Numbered from the stretch's first letter, positions 1-29,600 are shown. The stretch is 64,000 nucleotides of DNA from Pirellulales bacterium (GCA_044369655.1 JBILWX010000005.1:2476-66475); one strand, 5' to 3'. Notes: a model not told the origin generated them from the sequence alone. A program made the numbers and translations.

Positions 1-257
1 GCGTGTGCCTGTGGCCTTCCGGGGCCGGGGAGCCCCGCCAAGCCTGGGCGGAAAGCACGCTGGAAATGGACGCCTTCACCCCCGACTTCCTCGACTGGTA
101 TCTCGCGAGCGGCCTGTGGCGGGGCAAGGCGGGCGCCTGCGGCTTCCAGGACGAGCGGCTCCCGCTGCGGCTGCTCACCGGCAGCCCCTCGAACGTCGTC
201 GGCCTGCCGGTCGAGCTGATCGAGCAGATGCTCGCAGAAATCGATCGCTTCCACTGA
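1..257 (+). CDS. maf: Maf family nucleoside triphosphate pyrophosphatase, C-terminal part (5' truncated by window)
   Basis: YLASGLWRGKAGACGFQD...GSPSNVVGLP matches the Maf C-terminal KAGxY/NVVGLP motifs. Confidence 0.85.
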   Translation, partial: VCLWPSGAGEPRQAWAESTLEMDAFTPDFLDWYLASGLWRGKAGACGFQDERLPLRLLTGSPSNVVGLPVELIEQMLAEIDRFH

Positions 258-276
258 ACCACCTTTGGGTCTGCGA

Positions 277-408
277 GGGGCTGCCCATGCCCCAGGAGCC
301 GGCGTAGCTGGCCAGCGCAGCCATGGATGGCGCAGCGCAGCCAGCTCCGAGTGAGCGGAGCCCAGGATGGGCGCAGCGAACGTCCGGCGATGGGGCGTGG
401 GCAGCCCC
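277..408. repeat. Structured ~132-bp palindromic intergenic repeat, copy 1 (REP/MITE-like)
   Basis: 18-bp terminal inverted repeat GGGGCTGCCCATGCCCCA/TGGGGCGTGGGCAGCCCC with nested internal hairpins; about 17 differences from the copy at 2236-2366 by manual alignment; lies between convergent maf and clpS. Confidence 0.9.
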
Positions 409-419
409 GAACCGTGGCC

Positions 420-797
420 CTACTCCGGCTCGGGCTCGATCGAGGCCGACATCGCGCCCTTCGAGCGGCGCAGCAGGCGGTCGGCGCCGAAGGCGTGGAT
501 CTGATCCCGCTTCAACTCCGCATGCTCCTTCGTCGTCGTCAGCACGATCACCCGCCCCTGGGAGTCGACCTCTTTTGCCAGCAGGTAGCCCTTCTCCGGC
601 GGATGCCCGAAGAGCTTCTGGAGCATCGCCACCACGTACTGGTAGGTGTGGTCGTCGTCGTTCCAGAGCACCACGTGGTAGCGCGGCTGCTTCTTGGGCC
701 GACTGTCGCTCTTCTGCTTGTCACTGCGTGGGGGCGTGGCGGGGGCCGGGGCGTCCTCGATGGCCTCCTCGGCGGCGGCACTGGCGGTGGCGGTCAT
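420..797 (-). CDS. clpS: ATP-dependent Clp protease adaptor ClpS
   Basis: YHVVLWNDDDHTYQYVVAMLQKLFGH...EVDSQGR ClpS core; start chosen at ATG 797. Confidence 0.9.
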   Translation of the reverse strand: MTATASAAAEEAIEDAPAPATPPRSDKQKSDSRPKKQPRYHVVLWNDDDHTYQYVVAMLQKLFGHPPEKGYLLAKEVDSQGRVIVLTTTKEHAELKRDQIHAFGADRLLRRSKGAMSASIEPEPE

Positions 798-937
798 GGG
801 ATGGCACACTCCGGCGGGTTTCCCGTACCCCGTCGACAGGACGACGAGGACAACCTGACAGGAACCGTTCCACAGTATAAGGTGTGGCCCTCCGCCGGTG
901 GCTGTCACCCCGCGGATTCCCAGGGAGATATGCCGTC

Positions 938-2218
938 GTGCTCGATCGCCGCTTCGTCGCCGACAATGTGGACCTCGTCGCCACCAACTGCCGCCAGCGG
1001 GGCTCGTCCGCCGACGTGGCCAGGTTTGCCGAACTCGACCGTCTGCGGCGGCAGATGCAGGCCGACATCGACCGGCTCAACCAACAGGCCGGCCAGGTGA
1101 GCAAGTCGATCGCCACCGCGGCCGACGCCGCCGAACGAGAGGCCCGCAAGGCCGACGGCCGGCGGCTCCGCGAAGAGGTCTCGGCGTTCGAGGCGAAACT
1201 GGCCGAGATCGTCCAGGAATCGGACGTGATCCTCCGGGCGATCCCCAACCTCACGCATCCCGCCGCGCCGGTGGGGGGCGAGGACGCCGCCGTCGAGATT
1301 CGCCTGGGGCGGACGCCCGTCGCCGACTTCGAATACAAGCCGCTCGATCACGTCGAACTCGGCGGCCGCCTCAAGCTCTTCGACTTCGAGGCCGGTGCCA
1401 AGGTGGCCGGACACGGCTTTTATTTTCTCACCAACGATGCCGTCCTCCTGGAGTTGGCACTGCAGCGGTATGCAATCGACCTGCTGATGCGGGAGAACTT
1501 CACGGTGATGACCACGCCCGACCTCGCGCGGGACACCATCCTCGAGGGCACCGGCTTCATGCCCCGTGGCCCGGAGACGCAGATCTACTCGATCACCGGC
1601 AGCGATCTGTCGCTCGTGGCCACGGCCGAGATCACGCTCGGCGGCGCGATGCACGAGCGGATCTTCGAGGCCGAGGAACTGCCGCTCAAGCTCTGCGGCA
1701 TCAGCCACTGCTTCCGCACCGAGGCCGGCGCCCACGGTCGCGCCACCCGCGGCCTCTACCGCGTGCACCAGTTCACGAAGGTGGAGATGTTCGCCTACAC
1801 GCTTCCAGAACAGAGCGAGGACATGCACAACTACCTGCTCGACCTGGAGTGTGAACTCTTCGACGGCCTCGGCATCCCCTACCGTGTCATCGACACCGCC
1901 AGCGGCGATCTGGGCGGCCCCGCCTATCGGAAGTTCGACCTCGAGGCCTGGATGCCGGGCCGCGGCGAAAAGGGGGAGTGGGGCGAGGTGACGAGCACCT
2001 CCAACTGCACCGACTACCAGGCGCGCAGGCTGGCGGTGCGGTATCGCAAGCCAGGCGAAAAGGGCACCTCCTACGTCCACACACTCAACGGCACGGCGAT
2101 CGCGATCAGCCGCGCGATCATCGCCATCCTGGAAAACTACCAGTGCTCCGACGGCTCGATCGTCGTCCCCGACGCGCTCGTGCCGTGGATGGGCAAGAAG
2201 AAGATCGAACCGCGGTAG
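938..2218 (+). CDS. serS: Serine--tRNA ligase
   Basis: N-terminal coiled coil, ATAE, CFRTEAG, GLYRVHQFTKVE, STSNCTDYQARR, HTLNGT; GTG start 938 after GGAGA. Confidence 0.97.
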   Translation: MLDRRFVADNVDLVATNCRQRGSSADVARFAELDRLRRQMQADIDRLNQQAGQVSKSIATAADAAEREARKADGRRLREEVSAFEAKLAEIVQESDVILRAIPNLTHPAAPVGGEDAAVEIRLGRTPVADFEYKPLDHVELGGRLKLFDFEAGAKVAGHGFYFLTNDAVLLELALQRYAIDLLMRENFTVMTTPDLARDTILEGTGFMPRGPETQIYSITGSDLSLVATAEITLGGAMHERIFEAEELPLKLCGISHCFRTEAGAHGRATRGLYRVHQFTKVEMFAYTLPEQSEDMHNYLLDLECELFDGLGIPYRVIDTASGDLGGPAYRKFDLEAWMPGRGEKGEWGEVTSTSNCTDYQARRLAVRYRKPGEKGTSYVHTLNGTAIAISRAIIAILENYQCSDGSIVVPDALVPWMGKKKIEPR

Positions 2219-2235
2219 ATCCTCTCCATCCACGA

Positions 2236-2366
2236 GGGGCTGCCCATGCCCTGAGAGCCGGCGTTGCTGACCAGCGCAGGCAGGATGCCGGAGCGCAGTC
2301 AGCATCGAGTGAGCGAAGCCCAGGATGGGCGTAGCGAACGTCCGGCGACAGGGCATGGGCAGCCCC
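2236..2366. repeat. Structured ~131-bp palindromic intergenic repeat, copy 2
   Basis: Perfect 18-bp inverted repeat GGGGCTGCCCATGCCCTG/CAGGGCATGGGCAGCCCC; homologous to 277-408; lies between convergent serS and the S1-domain gene. Confidence 0.9.
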
Positions 2367-2377
2367 GGCGCGCCCTC

Positions 2378-4129
2378 TCACCACTTGAGGCCGAACTTCT
2401 CGCCGGCAGACTTACCGCCGACGCTGCCCGTGCCGCCCTTCAGCATGCCCATGCGCTTCTTCACGACCGGTGCCGGCGGCACTTCCTCGGCCGCCGCATC
2501 CTCGGCCGCCGCACCGTCGTCGGCCGCCGCCGCAGGCACGGCAGCCAGCGCCTTGATGGAGAGCGACATCCGCTGCTCGTCGGGATCGATGGCGAGCACT
2601 CGGCACTCCACCGACTCCCCTTCCTTGACGACGTCGCCCACGCTGCGAACGTGACGGTTCGCCAGTTCGGACACGTGCACGAGCCCCTCGACTCCCGGCT
2701 CGAGTTTCACGAAGGCGCCAAACTGGGCGATCCGACTGACTACGCCGCGCACCGTGGCGCCGACGTGGTATTTTTCGCCGGCCCGCTGCCATGGGCTCTC
2801 GACGAGATCGCGGGCCGAGAGGCCGATCTTCCCGGTGTCGCGGTCGATTTTCTTGACGACCACACGCACCCGCTGGCCGGGCTGCAGCACGTCGGCCGGG
2901 TTCGCCACGCGCTCCCAGGAGAGTTGGCTCACGTGCACGAGCCCCTCGACTCCCTCGCCGATGTCGACGAACGCGCCGAAATCGCGAACCGACCGGACGG
3001 TGCCGTCGAGCGTGGTGCCCACTTCCAACGTTTCCAGAAGCTTCGTCTTCGCCTCGGCGGCCTGTTTCTCGATCACCGCCCGGCGCGAAAGCACGAGCCT
3101 GCGGGCGGCCGGCACGATGTCGGTGACGAGGCTTTCGAGCGTCTGCCCGACCATCTCCTCGAGATTTTCCACCCGCCAGGTGCTCACGAGGCTCGCCGGC
3201 ATGAACCCGCGCAATCCCGCCACGTCACATTCGAGGCCACCCTTGTTGGCCGCCGTCACCCGGGCCTCCACGATCATGCCGGCTTGGAGCTGCGACCAGT
3301 CTTCTACGGCCACGGCGCGGTTGGCAAAGGCGACGTCGTAGAGACCGTCGTCCTCGTTGCGGAGGCCGACGCTGAGTTGCAGCACGTCGCCGACCGCGGG
3401 AACCAGTTCGAGATCGAGCCCGGCGAGTTTCATCGCCCCCTGCCGCCGCTCGCCGAGGTCGATGAACGCCGTATCGGCGCCGAGCGACAGCACCGTGCCG
3501 GTGAGCCGCGCCCCTGGCTCGAGCGGAGCATCGGCCCGTGCCGGCGTCGACGCCGTGATCAGCTCGTCGAGCGACACCCCGGCCAACGCCGCCTCGAAAT
3601 CCTGTTCCAGATCATCGTCGAGCGCAGCCCGCAGGTTCGGCACCGCGACCCGCTTGGCCGGAGGCAGAACGTCCTTGAAGGGCGACTTCTCGGCCGCGCC
3701 GCCGCGTTTGTCTCGACGGCCTTCGCGACGCGGAGCCGCCGACTGGCCCCGGGCGGCATCCGCGGCAGGTGCCGCTGCGACCGGCGCGGCATCCGCGGCA
3801 GGTGCTGCTGCGACCGGCGCGGCGGAAGGTGCCGACGTCACCTCGGCCCCAGGTGCTGATGCGAGCGGTGCTGATGCGAGCGGTGCCGGTGCTGCCGGAG
3901 CCGCCGGTGCCGCGGCCGCCCGCGGAACCTGCAGCCCAGCAGTCGCCGCCGGGGCCGGAGCGGAAAAATATTCATACCGCGGCGCGGGCCGCGGCGGCTT
4001 CACGCCAGGACGCTGGGTGCCGATCGGAATCCGCTTGGACTGCGATCCGGAATTTCCCTGCTGGGAAGGCTGCTGGGCAGCGGCGTCGCCTTCCGGGGGC
4101 GTCGAGGAAGGCTCTGGCGTTGAACTCAT
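2378..4129 (-). CDS. S1 RNA-binding domain protein (RpsA-like, about four S1 repeats) with a long Ala/Pro-rich N-terminus
   Basis: S1 motifs NKGGLECDVAGLRGFMPAS, DFGAFVDIGEGVEGLVHVSQL, QFGAFVKLEPGVEGLVHVSEL. Confidence 0.85.
   Translation of the reverse strand: MSSTPEPSSTPPEGDAAAQQPSQQGNSGSQSKRIPIGTQRPGVKPPRPAPRYEYFSAPAPAATAGLQVPRAAAAPAAPAAPAPLASAPLASAPGAEVTSAPSAAPVAAAPAADAAPVAAAPAADAARGQSAAPRREGRRDKRGGAAEKSPFKDVLPPAKRVAVPNLRAALDDDLEQDFEAALAGVSLDELITASTPARADAPLEPGARLTGTVLSLGADTAFIDLGERRQGAMKLAGLDLELVPAVGDVLQLSVGLRNEDDGLYDVAFANRAVAVEDWSQLQAGMIVEARVTAANKGGLECDVAGLRGFMPASLVSTWRVENLEEMVGQTLESLVTDIVPAARRLVLSRRAVIEKQAAEAKTKLLETLEVGTTLDGTVRSVRDFGAFVDIGEGVEGLVHVSQLSWERVANPADVLQPGQRVRVVVKKIDRDTGKIGLSARDLVESPWQRAGEKYHVGATVRGVVSRIAQFGAFVKLEPGVEGLVHVSELANRHVRSVGDVVKEGESVECRVLAIDPDEQRMSLSIKALAAVPAAAADDGAAAEDAAAEEVPPAPVVKKRMGMLKGGTGSVGGKSAGEKFGLKW
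3753..3886. repeat. Intragenic tandem repeats (33 bp x2+ and 15 bp x2+) in the low-complexity N-terminus of the S1 protein
   Basis: GCGGCATCCGCGGCAGGTGCYGCTGCGACCGGC at 3753 and 3786; GGTGCTGATGCGAGC at 3852 and 3867. Confidence 0.85.
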
Positions 4130-4998: not shown

Positions 4999-7233
4999 AT
5001 GCCCAACGGCCCAGACGGGACCACTGCCATGCCAACCCCGCCGGCGAAACCAGCACGCAAATCCCGCAGCCTCACGGTCGAGCGGCGGGATGACGGCGTG
5101 GTCGTGCTGTCGTTTTTCGTGCCCGACCATGGGCAGAACGTGCTCACGCCGGAGACGATGGCAGAGTTGTCGCAGGCACTCGACAGCCTGGAAGCCGGGC
5201 CGCCGACCACGGCGGTGGTGATCCAATCCACGCGGGCCGGCTCCTTTTTCGCCGGTGCCGAGATGGCCCGACTCGACCGCCTGTCTGACACGCCGGCCGC
5301 GGAAATCGAGCGGCTCTGCTCCGCCGGTCGCGCGCTCTTCTCGCGACTCTCCGCCTCCGCCTGGCCGAGCGTGGCGATCATCGACGGCATCTGCCTGGGG
5401 GGCGGTCTCGAACTCGCCCTCGCCTGCGATCTCCGCGTTGCCACCGATGCCGCCCACACCGCGCTCGGTTTCCCCGAGGTGAAACTGGGCCTGCTGCCCG
5501 GGTGGGGAGGCACGGTTCGCCTCGCGCGGCTGATCGGCCCCGGCGCCGCGGTGGAACTGGCGGCGGCGGGCGAATCCGTCGATGGCCCCACCGCCGCTCG
5601 GCTGGGACTGGTCGATGCCTGCGTGCCGCCCGATCAGGCGATTGGTTCGGCCTGCCGACTGGCAGCACTCGCGCTGGCCCGACAGAGCCACCTGGAGCGG
5701 CGGCGGCAACAGGCCGGACGGGTGCCGCTCGTCGCCGAAGAGAGGGATTTCCTCGAGTCGATGTCGGCGGCCGTGATCCTCGGCCGCAGCGGCGGGCACT
5801 ATCCCGCCCCTCTGGCCATCCTGGAAACGATTCTTGCGGGCATCGACCTGCCTGCCGAGCAGGCGGCGCGGAGCGAAGCCGCCGCCTTTGCGAAGCTCGC
5901 CACAGACGACGTGTCGCGGCAACTCATCCGGGTGTTTCGGCTGGGCGAGCGGAACCGCCGGGACAGCGGGCTCGACGACCGCGCGACCGACGCTGCACGG
6001 GGCACTACGCCGACGATCGCGCCACGGACGTGTGACCGCCCCGCGGTCATCGGTGCCGGCATCATGGGGGCGGGCATTGCAGCCAGCCACCTGCGGGCCG
6101 GCTTCGCGGTGACGCTCATCGACGTGCAGGCCGACACGCTGGCCGGCAGCGTCGCCGGAATCCTCGACGAGGCGGCCTGGGACCGGGCGACCAAACGCAC
6201 CGACCAGGCCCGGGCGGTCACGCTGTCGGGCAGGCTCCACACGGCCACCCGCATGGCGGCGATCGCCGAGTGCGACCTCGTCATCGAAAGCGTGCTCGAA
6301 CGGGCCGACATCAAGCGGCAGGTGCTCGTCGACATCGAACGGACGGTGGGCCCGGGAACGGTCATCGCCACCAACACTTCGACCAACCCGATCGCGAAGC
6401 TGGCGGAACCGCTCCAGGATCCGTCCCGGTTCTGCGGCATCCATTTCTTCAATCCCGTCCGCCGCATGACGCTCGTGGAGGTGATCCGCGGCCCGGCCAC
6501 GAGCGACGAGACCGTCACCACCGCCGTGGCCCATGTCAAACGGCTCGGCAAGTGCCCGATCGTCGTTCGGGACAGCCCTGGCTTTCTGGTCAACCGCGTG
6601 CTGATGCCCTACCTCCACGAGTCGGTGGAGATGCTCCGCGAGGGGATCGAGGCGAAGCGGATCGACCGGGTGGCCCGGGGCTTCGGCATGCCGATGGGAC
6701 CGCTGGAGCTCTACGACATGATCGGACTCGACACGGCCTTCTACGCCGGGCTCGTGTTGAGCGCCGCCTACGGCGATCGGATCGAGGCTTCCCCCCTGAT
6801 TCCGGCGCTCGTGAAATCGGGACGGCTCGGCCGCAAGAGCGGCGCCGGCTTCTATCACTACACCAGCGGCGGCCAGCAGGCCAGGATCGAACGCCCCGAT
6901 GAAGGTGTGGCGAAACTGATCAGGCCATATGCGCTCCCGTCCCGCGAGACCACCGACGCGACGATCGCCGACCGCCTCCTCCTGCCCATGCTCTTGGAGG
7001 CGCTCCGCGTGCTCGAGGAGGGCATCGTCCGCGACGGTCGCGACGTCGATCTGGCGGTGATCCATGCCCTCGGCTTCCCGGCATTCCGCGGCGGCCTGCT
7101 GTCATGGGGCAACTCGCTCGGCGCCGCGGAGGTGGTCCGTCGGCTGGCACCGCTGGCCGATCTCGGCATCCGCATGCACCCCACCCCGCGACTGCTCGCC
7201 ATGGCGGCCGCGGGGGAACCCTTCACCCCCTGA
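4999..7233 (+). CDS. fadB: Fatty-acid oxidation complex alpha subunit (enoyl-CoA hydratase + 3-hydroxyacyl-CoA dehydrogenase)
   Basis: GICLGGGLELALACD, GFPEVKLGLLPGWGG, GAGIMGAG, TNTST, GIHFFNPV, PGFLVNR; start uncertain (4999 or 5029). Confidence 0.93.
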   Translation: MPNGPDGTTAMPTPPAKPARKSRSLTVERRDDGVVVLSFFVPDHGQNVLTPETMAELSQALDSLEAGPPTTAVVIQSTRAGSFFAGAEMARLDRLSDTPAAEIERLCSAGRALFSRLSASAWPSVAIIDGICLGGGLELALACDLRVATDAAHTALGFPEVKLGLLPGWGGTVRLARLIGPGAAVELAAAGESVDGPTAARLGLVDACVPPDQAIGSACRLAALALARQSHLERRRQQAGRVPLVAEERDFLESMSAAVILGRSGGHYPAPLAILETILAGIDLPAEQAARSEAAAFAKLATDDVSRQLIRVFRLGERNRRDSGLDDRATDAARGTTPTIAPRTCDRPAVIGAGIMGAGIAASHLRAGFAVTLIDVQADTLAGSVAGILDEAAWDRATKRTDQARAVTLSGRLHTATRMAAIAECDLVIESVLERADIKRQVLVDIERTVGPGTVIATNTSTNPIAKLAEPLQDPSRFCGIHFFNPVRRMTLVEVIRGPATSDETVTTAVAHVKRLGKCPIVVRDSPGFLVNRVLMPYLHESVEMLREGIEAKRIDRVARGFGMPMGPLELYDMIGLDTAFYAGLVLSAAYGDRIEASPLIPALVKSGRLGRKSGAGFYHYTSGGQQARIERPDEGVAKLIRPYALPSRETTDATIADRLLLPMLLEALRVLEEGIVRDGRDVDLAVIHALGFPAFRGGLLSWGNSLGAAEVVRRLAPLADLGIRMHPTPRLLAMAAAGEPFTP

Positions 7234-23333: not shown

Positions 23334-23456
23334 AGTCAGCCTTCGCAGTCGTCGCCATCCAAGCCCGCAGCGCAAGCGAGAGAATGCGTTCCCACCGGTG
23401 ATAACCCACCGCCGGGACGGCAGAAGTCTCGTCGCTACGGCGAGGATACGCCTAAC

Positions 23457-23707
23457 GCTCCTCGAGCTTCCGCCGATCCCAGCTCCCCGTTTTGACTGCA
23501 TGGCAGGATGCCATGCGCAGCACCAGCAAACTGCGTTTGCCAAGAAAAAACGACACGATGTCGTGTTTTTCGTGCAGACGGCTCCTCGAGCTTCCGCCGA
23601 TCCCGGCTCCCCGTTTTGACTGCATGGCAGGATGCCATGCGCAGCACCAGCAAACTGCGTTTGCCAAGAAAAAACGACACGATGTCGTGTTTTTCGTGCA
23701 GACGGCT
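23457..23707. repeat. 124-bp tandem repeat, two copies, containing three hairpins
   Basis: Units 23457-23580 and 23581-23704 differ at a single base; lies between convergent tadA and gltA. Confidence 0.95.
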
Positions 23708-26607: not shown

Positions 26608-29600
26608 CACGGTCTCGGTCGGGGACGGGCTGGACCCGCCGGGCGGCCCGCGTTCCTTCCGCTGGGGGCCGCCACGGGTGGGGGACTATAGGGACGCCCG
26701 CGAACAGGTCGCAAGAGCGTCCTGACCAGTGCCAAAAGACGGTCCGGATCGTCGGCAACCCGCTGATCCAGCGGCACCACCGCAGTTCTGTCGCCGACGA
26801 CACGCAGCGTCTTCCCCCCAGCCTGCCAGGCCGCCCGCAACCGCTGGATGGCCTGAGGATCATGGTGGCCGATCATGAGCATTCCCGGCTGACGGGTGAT
26901 GGAATCGATGCCATGGGCCGCGGCGGCGACCCGCAGCCGGGCAAACTCGAGCATTCTGGTCACCTCGACCGGCAGGGGGCCGAACCGGTCGACGAGTTCC
27001 GCCGCGAGGTCGTCCACCTGCCCCTCTCCGGCTACCCGCGAGAGCCGGCGATAGACGTCTATCTTCGCGCGGAAGTCGGGGATGAAGTCGCGCGGCAGCC
27101 AGGCAGCGCCGGGCAGATCGATCGTCACCGGGGGTGGTTCGGCCGGCGGCATCGCCTTGAGCCCGCGGACGGCCTGCTCGAGCAACCGGCAGTAGAGTTC
27201 GTAGCCGACCGTGGCGATGTGCCCGCTCTGCTGCGTCCCGAGGAGATTCCCCGCGCCCCTGATCTCGAGATCGCGCATCGCCAGCGAGAAGCCGGCGCCC
27301 ATGCTGGAGAACTCCTGGATCGCACGAAGCCGCTTGGCCGCCGTGCTCGTGAGCGTGGCCGCCTCGTCGACGAGGAGGTGGCAGTAGGCGCGGTGGTGCG
27401 AGCGGCCGACACGGCCGCGCAACTGATGCAGGTCGGCGAGGCCGTAGGTGTCGGCCTCGTCGATGAAGATGGTGTTGGCCCGCGGAATGTCGAGGCCGCT
27501 CTCGATGATCGTCGTGGCCAGCAGGATGTCGGCATGGCCGGCCACGAAGGCGAGCATGACCTCTTCGAGTTCCGACTCCGACAACCGCCCGTGGGCGATG
27601 ACGATCTTCGCCTCGGGGACGATCTGCGTGAGCCGATGCGCCACCTTGTGGATGTCGTGGATCCGGTTGTGCACGAAGAACACCTGCCCGCCCCGCGCCA
27701 GCTCCCGGTCGATGGCACCGCGGATGAGCCGCTCGTCCCAGCGGGCCACGCGGGTCTCGACCGCGATCCGGTTGGCGGGAGGCGTGGTGAGATTCGAGAT
27801 GTCGCGGATGCCGAGCATCGCCATGTGCAGCGTGCGCGGGATCGGCGTGGCGGTCATGGTGAGCACGTCCACACTGGCGCGGAGCGCCTTGAGCCGCTCT
27901 TTGACGTCGACGCCGAATCGCTGTTCCTCGTCGACGACCACGAGCCCCAGGTTGGCGAAGTGGATATCGGCCTGCGCGAGACGGTGTGTGCCGATGACGA
28001 TGTCGACGGTGCCGCGGGCAAGGCCCTCCAGTGTGTCACGTTCCTCCCTGGTGCCGGTGAGCCGGGAGAGCGCCCGGATCGTGAACGGGAATTCGGAAAA
28101 TCTGGCGACGAACGTCCGGCGATGCTGCTCGGCCAGCACCGTCGTCGGCACGAGCACGGCCACCTGGGCCCCGGCCTCCGCCACCTTGAACGCCGCCCGC
28201 ATCGCCAGTTCCGTCTTGCCGAATCCGACGTCGCCGCAGAGCAGCCGGTCCATGGGTCGCGGCCGCTCGAGGTCGGCGCGGATCGCCTCGATGGCCGTGA
28301 GTTGGTCGGGCGTCTCGTCGAAGGGGAATGATCCCTCGAAGCTGCGCTGCCAGGGCGTGTCGGGCGGGAAGGCCACGCCCGGACGGCTCTCCCGTCGGGC
28401 CTGCAACTGGATCATGTCTGCGGCCATGTCGGCGACGGCCCGCTCGACCGCAGCCTTCTGCCTCTCCCAGAGGGAGCCGCCGACCTTGGCAAGCTTGGGG
28501 GCGAGTTTGGTGCCGCCCACGTATTTCTGCACCAGATCGATACAGGAAGCCGGCACGTAGACCCGCGTGCTTTCAGCGAATTCGATCTCGAGGAACTCCT
28601 CCGTGCGGCCGTGTTTCTCGAGCAACTTGAGGCCCTTGTAGCGACCGATGCCATGGGCGACATGCACCACGTAGTCGCCCTCGTGGAGATCGAGGAACGT
28701 GTCGATCGCCCGTGACAGCCGCTGCTTCGTCGGCCGCGCCGCCGCCACGTCCTCGCGGCGAAACAGTTCCGCACTCGAAATCAGCACGATCTTCTCGGGC
28801 ACGAGCCGGAATCCTCCGGAGAGGTGGCCCCGGGCAAAGTGCAGCCGGCCGGACCGCGCCGGACCGCACTCTGCGAGCAGTTCCCGCAGCCGCTTCTCGT
28901 CGGCTTCTGTCGGCGCAACGACGCACACCTCCTGATCCTTGCCGACCGTTTCGAGTTCTTCGCGGACGCGGTCAAGCACACCCGTGAACCGCTCCACGCT
29001 CTCGATCGCCAGGAGTGCCGTCGTCTCGAGGCTCGACGGTGCGACGGCGGCGAGCGTCACCGAGGGGAACCGATAGATTCTGGAGAACACCTCGGCAGGA
29101 TCGGAAACCATGCCCGCACCGCCCCCATCCCCCGCGGCGTGGCTCAGTCGCTGGTAGGCGCGAGAGGCCTCCTCGGCGATTTCGCCGGGTTCAACGAGGG
29201 CCCACCACGAGCCCGCCGGCACGATGTCGGCCAACTGCGTCCGTCGCACCGGCTGACCGCCCGTAACCACTCCGGTCCGCCCCAAGGCGGTGAGGGCGAT
29301 GGCCGTGAGCGCGTCGACGCTCCGCTGACTGACGGTATCGAAGGTGCGGAGTGACTCGATCTCGTCACCGAACAGTTCGACGCGAACGGGGCGTTCCCAG
29401 TCGGTGGCGAAGAGGTCGAGAATGCCGCCGCGGCGGGCGAACGTGCCGGGCTGGTCGATGGCATCGGTCATCGACCAGCCCCGCGCCAGGAGCCAGTCGG
29501 CGAACTCCGCCGGATCGAGCCGCCCTCCCACGACAAGGTGCCGGGTGCTGGCCTCGATGTCGCGTGGATCGGCAAGCGGAGACAGGAGGGCCTGAACAGT

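Follow-up and report, generated by a model that had tools for sequence, protein, structure and literature searches.

The 64,000-nucleotide stretch of Pirellulales DNA analysed here (the window) carries two copies of a multi-copy non-coding repeat that has a conserved branched fold and is gained and lost between genes. We consider it likely (probability about 0.6) that this repeat is a non-autonomous element of the REP/BIME type, mobilised as a single DNA strand that an HUH (Y1) transposase with its gene elsewhere would cut and rejoin.

Copy 1 occupies positions 273..414 and copy 2 positions 2232..2370, both given on the plus strand. The conserved unit reaches a few bases past the stems on both sides, and in copy 1 these limits include the family-conserved terminal GA and the outer bases. 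The stem-to-stem cores, 277-408 (132 nt) and 2236-2366 (131 nt), are those that a sequence-only reading of the window had already located, and the convergent genes that it saw around both copies were also found: copy 1 lies between the 3' end of a Maf-family gene (3..257, plus strand) and clpS (420..797, minus strand), and copy 2 between serS (938..2218, plus strand) and a gene for an S1-domain protein (2378..3640, minus strand, with a start possibly further upstream). From its foot inwards the fold has an 18-bp outer stem, then a tandem GA/GA and a 5-bp stem, which leads to a three-way junction with two arms. In copy 1 the 5' arm of the outer stem (277..294) pairs with its 3' arm (391..408), and the tandem GA/GA separates it from the 5-bp stem that closes the junction (298..302 with 384-388). 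Arm 1 (303..349) is built of 2 bp, a pyrimidine mismatch, a 7-bp stem, a GC pair step, a GNA/GNA internal loop and a hairpin with a (T)GGA loop, and arm 2 (351..381) of 2 bp, a tandem GA/GA, a GC pair step, a GNA/GNA internal loop and a 5-bp hairpin with a GGA loop. The corresponding parts of copy 2 are the outer stem (2236-2253 with 2349-2366), the junction stem (2257-2261 with 2342-2346), arm 1 (2262..2307) and arm 2 (2309..2339). Both arms finish with a GC step followed by a GNA/GNA internal loop and a short GGA-capped hairpin, the subunit form that had been described beforehand.

The two window copies differ by 16 substitutions and one indel, in agreement with the earlier estimate of about 17 differences. 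Ten of the 17 belong to five compensatory pairs, exactly those proposed from the sequence, and another converts a T·G pair to T-A, a change that had likewise been noticed. The remaining six all fall at unpaired positions (one beside a tandem GA, three at the middle bases of GNA motifs, one at the pyrimidine mismatch and one as the extra loop T). Folding z-scores relative to shuffled sequences range from -6 to -9 for the window copies on both strands, whether these are folded as RNA or as DNA. A third BLAST match in the window, at about 28109-28141, was rejected as a weak, chance partial match in what is apparently coding sequence. Elsewhere in the window, positions 23426-23640 hold a tandem pair of three-module units with a period of about 124 bp that come from other repeat families, one module of which recurs at 6502.

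To look beyond the window, 116 copies were aligned, two from the window and 114 from loci found by a search pattern that fixed the junction stem and parts of arm 2; these columns therefore prove nothing, the junction-stem columns (298..302 in copy 1) having been set by the pattern in most of the aligned rows. Under the named structure 96.2% of the cells are paired, and 38 of the 49 pairs vary on both sides, with 561 such cells compared with 135 in shuffles, whereas sliding the pair partners as a control lowered pairing to 30-40%. When changes were mapped on a tree to allow for the relatedness of the copies, same-branch double changes in paired columns numbered 218, against 23.6 +/- 7.7 (maximum 61) in 2000 re-pairings. 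The covariation is strong and phylogenetically repeated, and the feature is real; the conserved secondary structure first proposed from two copies holds on 116 copies and on the tree. Among the outer-stem pairs 19 of 20 covary. G·T cells exceed A·C cells (173 versus 41), which identifies the GA-rich strand as the strand with conserved pairing.

Nearly invariant G·A motifs surround freely varying middle bases: in the GNA/GNA loop of arm 1, which the search pattern did not fix, the tree shows 0-2 changes at the G and A positions and 32-39 at N. An extra GA/GA is present at the foot in 121 of the 219 parsed copies, and past it two further bases covary, forming a Watson-Crick pair in 90 of these 121 copies, in three versions. 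The foot carries GA in 144/219 copies, mostly as GTGA or GCGA on the GA-rich strand (GTTC or GCTC on the opposite strand). Sheared G·A pairs are described as making GCGNAGC and GCGNNAGC DNA mini-hairpins more stable, a stability that, in the accessible text of that source, the RNA versions do not share (PMC13037366), and we infer that the GNA/GNA internal loops of the element form sheared pairs. Complex single-stranded DNA motifs are said to be rare and hard to distinguish from RNA in the portion available of another source (PMC5737381).

It is conceivable, though very improbable, that the covariation is a by-product of replication, in which template switching would repair the palindrome arms against each other and recombination among hairpin mosaics would spread the copies, with no dedicated enzyme and no selected fold. 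Template switching is reportedly able to create and maintain hairpins, and the ends of some copies are fully palindromic or of mixed type, while partial duplications flank inserted modules (see below). However, such a process cannot fix a non-Watson-Crick G·A while the base between varies freely, and it leaves unexplained the near-identical copies (93-97% identity) that are found at unrelated loci across species.

Rather than the two copies first supposed, the genome to which the window belongs (G000; 4.1 Mb, 92% complete) holds about 56: BLAST and HMM searches gave 60 matches, comprising 51 near full length, five partial or cut by contig ends and four weak fragments. None of the 56 lies within a gene called by our own hexamer gene caller and none of 222 copies in other genomes lies within a gene, so that the repeat is high-copy, extragenic and palindromic, as REP, BIME and REPIN sequences are. 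Convergent siting, true of both window copies, does not extend to the family: among the 47 copies of G000 with both neighbours called, 17 are in convergent and 30 in tandem gaps, and the 162 such copies of other genomes divide into 61 convergent, 88 tandem and 13 divergent. Divergent gaps are avoided in G000 (0/47, compared with about 23% of gaps; p = 1e-5) and hold 13/162 copies elsewhere. The genes beside the G000 copies look ordinary by eye.

With a covariance model, 121 of the 140 further genomes searched from this Pirellulales-type family proved to carry the element, spread over 11 of 12 genera. None of the 95 genomes that represent other families of the order had it. The DNA runs that contain the window are labelled lake water or freshwater. 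A phage collection gave no match to the repeat, viral contigs gave none to its core pattern, and in 72,556 plasmid records the single partial match, of 46 bases, was judged to be chance.

In tandem gaps the GA-rich strand is co-directional or antisense to the neighbouring genes in 18:12 copies in G000 and 49:39 elsewhere (pooled 67:51, p = 0.17), and this lack of an orientation bias relative to transcription favours, indirectly, a DNA over an RNA structure. With respect to replication, the GA-rich strand falls on the G/T-poor strand in 24/34, 16/23 and 9/14 copies at three thresholds (p = 0.02, 0.09 and 0.42, respectively). The orientation counts bear on the main alternative explanation, namely that the repeat acts as RNA: a stable scaffold would display a pair of CsrA-type A(N)GGA loops in each copy, the copies working at the 3' ends of mRNAs or forming a dispersed sponge, with selection keeping the fold. 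The commonest loops, CAGGATG or CATGGATG, have the form of A(N)GGA in a hairpin, which is given as the CsrA motif (PMC10729762, accessible part), four CsrA-family matches occur in the 4.1 Mb of G000 (on contigs C202, C68, C242 and C49; L336-L339), and the avoidance of divergent gaps noted above would also fit a role in transcripts. Nevertheless, the copy is antisense to both neighbours in 51 of the 118 tandem gaps, so that read-through RNA would bear TCC loops there; of the roughly 230 arm-2 loops listed, 40 or more are without A(N)GGA; the sites of the element vary between species instead of being conserved; no sigma-70-like promoter was found in positions 200-2450; and an RNA role would leave the spread of the repeat unexplained. 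In two metatranscriptomes of relatives, available as assembled contigs for which strand and ends are not given, copies run into varied flanks with no pile-up of ends, a picture compatible with a discrete RNA as well as with its absence. The RNA explanation is unlikely. The central G of the hairpin loops is almost fixed, which the stability of DNA triloops alone would not need and which counts against the REP/BIME-type reading; some TnpA-REP enzymes, however, are described as reading loop bases sequence-specifically (PMC8266576, in part), and a fixed GGA thus cannot decide between DNA and RNA.

Presence and absence of the element were compared at the sites of the window copies. In 13 genomes that retain both anchors of the serS/S1-gene gap, five have a full copy, six have other repeats or chimeras (four chimeras begin like the element) and two are empty, with short gaps of some 45 and 65 bp; a third empty allele was seen on a metagenome contig. 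In one relative (G004, locus L065) a different repeat of about 120 bp occupies the site of copy 2 and shares its design, with a GA foot, a long outer stem and a branched interior. Of the 11 relatives whose sequence covers the region downstream of clpS, a single one carries a copy, which is diverged and has another upstream gene, and no empty allele of copy 1 was found in metagenome contigs. Among the listed contigs of five lake or freshwater DNA runs, whose assemblies break at the repeat, no joint skipped a whole copy. Neither an excised circle nor a precise empty/filled pair was seen, and this counts against the preferred explanation of transfer as single-stranded DNA.

Like REP, BIME and REPIN sequences, the element occurs as doublets, tandem arrays and mosaics. 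Head-to-head (inverted) doublets with spacers of about 20-75 bp were observed at about a dozen loci, together with tandem arrays. In the 44 element-bearing gaps of G000 other repeats are far more frequent than chance would give: REPs of the class 3 type (described below) number 10 where 2.6 were expected, and three further repeat modules occur 6, 9 and 4 times where fewer than 0.4 were expected, expectations that take no account of the length of the gaps. At two unrelated loci (G000:C121:11738-12318 and C181:13166-13751) five or six modules form mosaics that are nearly identical and in the same order, suggesting that a composite of about 500 bp may have moved as a unit. A partial duplicate of the resident element often follows an inserted module, and one internal position is a recurrent breakpoint. 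At L059 (genome G010), G000:C141:5623-6153 and C258:12442-12920 a multi-hairpin module interrupts resident repeats and is accompanied by partial duplications, in direct orientation, of about 17-80 bp, several of these insertions lying directly after a CT dinucleotide. The mosaics of the element resemble the variation and tandem assembly of BIMEs that have been attributed to strand transfer by TnpA-REP (PMC3333891, as far as its accessible text goes).

The ends of the copies were also considered in relation to other transposase classes, since a non-autonomous element could instead be a MITE, with an 18-bp terminal inverted repeat on which a DDE enzyme would act, or a rolling-circle passenger of an IS91-type (Y2) transposase. 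Bacterial MITEs and ERIC-type units measure 125-170 bp, are intergenic and have a terminal inverted repeat and a stable predicted fold; the element is alike in all of this, including its MITE-like size. It differs in that no target-site duplication was detected and in that its terminal repeat covaries rather than keeping its sequence, the 19 of 20 covarying outer pairs being unlike a terminal repeat that is read by sequence. Flanking direct repeats show no excess at 5 bp (32 versus 25.4), 6 bp (7 versus 5.8) or 8 bp (0 versus 0.2), and the excess at 4 bp (105 versus 81.7 in shuffles, maximum 96) may be explained by the symmetric GA-containing ends. As for rolling-circle transfer, IS91-type genes are present in 125 of 176 family genomes, in genus g3 they occur in 7 of the 8 element-positive and in none of the 13 element-negative genomes, and at L397 half a copy lies just past an IS91-like end. 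Yet IS91-like ends are dissimilar to the element, and four genomes (G019, G020, G049 and G106) have Y2 matches and no element, the tracking with IS91-type genes being limited to g3. Movement by either of these classes appears rather improbable. Genus g3 itself is split into repeat-free and repeat-bearing lineages: 13 of its 21 genomes have neither the element nor the class 3 REP pattern, and no IS91-type match either, and seven of the other eight are IS91-type-positive. A widespread IS91/ISCR-like family of about 545 aa with a conserved end motif (L375-L399) was recorded in this bacterial family.

The enzyme that would mobilise the element was sought in G000 among the Y1, Y2, IS110 and reverse transcriptase families and at transposase loci of relatives. 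A RAYT/IS200-like gene flanked by copies, which the sequence-only reading had proposed to look for, did not turn up among 135 Y1, IS91-type and IS110 loci, at none of which a full copy flanks the transposase gene. At the 103 Y1 loci among these (some repeated) a full copy was absent from beside the gene, and the best match reached 27 bits compared with 130-169 for listed true copies. The same absence was seen at the 32 IS91-type or IS110 loci, and no Y1 homologue was found in 264 further loci, most of them element-bearing. Within G000, which is 92% complete, no reverse transcriptase was found, and neither its one IS110 gene nor its IS91 fragment carries a copy. Of 452 copy-adjacent proteins, the 33 of at least 70 aa without a G000 homologue were scanned against Pfam and gave no transposase or nuclease. 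The two PF01797 genes of G000 were discarded as partners because their flanks hold a different short inverted repeat. REP-associated-type Y1 genes lie at G000:C12:5638-5976 and C207:2660-2866 (L001 and L002), and the short terminal inverted repeats in their flanks also occur some 48 times in G000. The guide/cleavage-site pairing rule said to hold for IS608 was also rejected, as only two of three pairs fit at the element ends.

A class 3 TnpA-Y1 gene of G000, at C54:15476-15940 (L224), was found with the protein of a relative and had been missed by Pfam PF01797. It has the HVH and Y----Q motifs and is flanked by arrays of its own GCGNNAGC-tipped REPs, of which a regular expression finds about 190 genome-wide. 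In the available text of Quentin et al. 2018 (PMC6006769) this class is described as mainly planctomycete, with atypical high-copy hairpins and a CnGA foot, and as having had no experimental test. The class 3 enzyme of G000 is the leading candidate for the element, a tentative and still doubtful assignment. Class 3 matches occur in 39 of 151 family genomes. The gene is present in 35/122 element-positive compared with 0/19 element-negative genomes (Fisher p = 0.004), a co-occurrence that is not independent given that 13 of the 19 negative genomes belong to one genus. The tip frame GA-GC-GNNA-GC-GA of class 3 REPs was found at 8 of 30 class 3 loci and at 0 of 42 class 2 loci, and arm 2 of the element repeats the GA-GC...GC-GA frame, its loop being enlarged by an inserted hairpin. 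Upstream of 13/219 copies, at a distance of 21-28 nt, the opposite strand carries a class 3-type REP, and four more copies have one at other distances. Against this candidate, the class 3 query has no match in 87 of the 122 element-positive genomes, the element is present at none of the 30 class 3 loci, where the genes carry their own shorter REPs, and the class 3 REP pattern is without a match in element-rich genomes (G001, G002, G014, G022, G046, G048 and G057) and in 16 of 17 genomes of genus g24. Genome G019 has 10 matches to the pattern and no element.

In the REP/BIME-type explanation, the GA-rich strand would fold once unwound and a protein would read the G·A motifs and GGA loops, so that only copies that keep the fold would spread. 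Cleavage close to the foot of the outer stem would release a single strand and insert it with no target duplication, and the surviving insertions would lie mainly just past gene ends. The REP/REPIN-like character first suggested for the two copies is consistent with the copy number, intergenic siting, presence/absence, doublets and mosaics, whereas the link to an HUH enzyme is one that we infer. A bolder proposal, which we hold to be unlikely, is that selection has shaped a three-way-junction fold of stacked G·A motifs in what would be a natural single-stranded DNA. The enzyme that recognises and mobilises it would belong to a type with no earlier connection to repeats, and after transcription the GGA loops of the element might also act as dispersed CsrA-binding sites. 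With no greater likelihood, that fold would be far more elaborate than the described REP or attC hairpins.

Comparison with known systems places the element near several of them. CsrA-binding RNAs of the CsrB/RsmZ type have A(N)GGA-like hairpin loops, as the element does; the element differs in having two loops per unit only and dozens of dispersed, polymorphic copies in both orientations, and no promoter or terminator was found. With REP/BIME/REPIN sequences and their TnpA-REP enzymes (RAYT, class 2 Y1 HUH; the E. coli REPtron), as presented in the accessible parts of PMC3333891 and PMC8266576, it shares high copy number, intergenic position after gene ends in either orientation, inverted doublets, tandem arrays, mosaics, the lack of a clear target duplication and imperfect stems that are kept. 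It differs from them in its length of about 140 nt with a three-way junction, compared with single hairpins of 21-65 nt, and in lacking both the GTAG/GTGG 5' foot and a transposase gene flanked by copies (PMC3333891, PMC8266576). The element thus works like a REP/BIME, yet it has no GTAG foot and flanks no transposase gene at the loci scanned, and for this reason it is filed as a variant of the REP/BIME kind. Class 3 hairpins, as described in part of PMC6006769, have in common with it the planctomycete host, a foot ending in GA, as in most copies of the element, and the GA-GC...GC-GA tip frame seen in arm 2, and they are further tied to it by the REPs at a fixed distance upstream of some copies and by the class 3 enzyme that G000 encodes. 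In contrast to them, the element is five times longer and branched, has a GGA hairpin inserted in place of the GNNA tetraloop and has a foot that is mostly GTGA/GCGA instead of CnGA (PMC6006769); it is absent from the flanks of class 3 genes and is present in genomes where the class 3 REP pattern is lacking.

The element had been called unnamed, and no Rfam family or published description matched it, within a literature that was mostly open full text. No Rfam 15 family matched at the gathering threshold, and of three weak matches of 15-18 bits none lay over the core of a copy, the nearest one ending ahead of copy 1. The full-text literature searched held no description of the repeat family, most subscription papers lying outside that search. 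The Rhodopirellula-1 motif is likewise a repeated structured motif from Planctomycetes (PMC2864571); as far as the accessible part of that source goes, it has unrelated end motifs, variable interiors and no resemblance to the element by eye, and it is taken as unrelated. In the text available, surveys of GTAG/CGTC REPs treat Planctomycetes only for tagged short hairpins (PMC3733652), and no planctomycete information was found in the accessible portion of 10.1101/119735.

REPs described so far consist of one short hairpin each, and elaborate folds in natural single-stranded DNA are said to be rare (PMC5737381, in its accessible text). Against this background the family offers hundreds of aligned natural variants that map the selected positions of a branched fold, and it could serve directly as a substrate in tests of class 3 TnpA-Y1 enzymes and as material for studying how REP/BIME mosaics spread. 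It also serves as a warning to screens for RNA motifs, as textbook covariation stems here from a mobile repeat. In the biology of its hosts, the element is probably ordinary selfish or semi-domesticated DNA.
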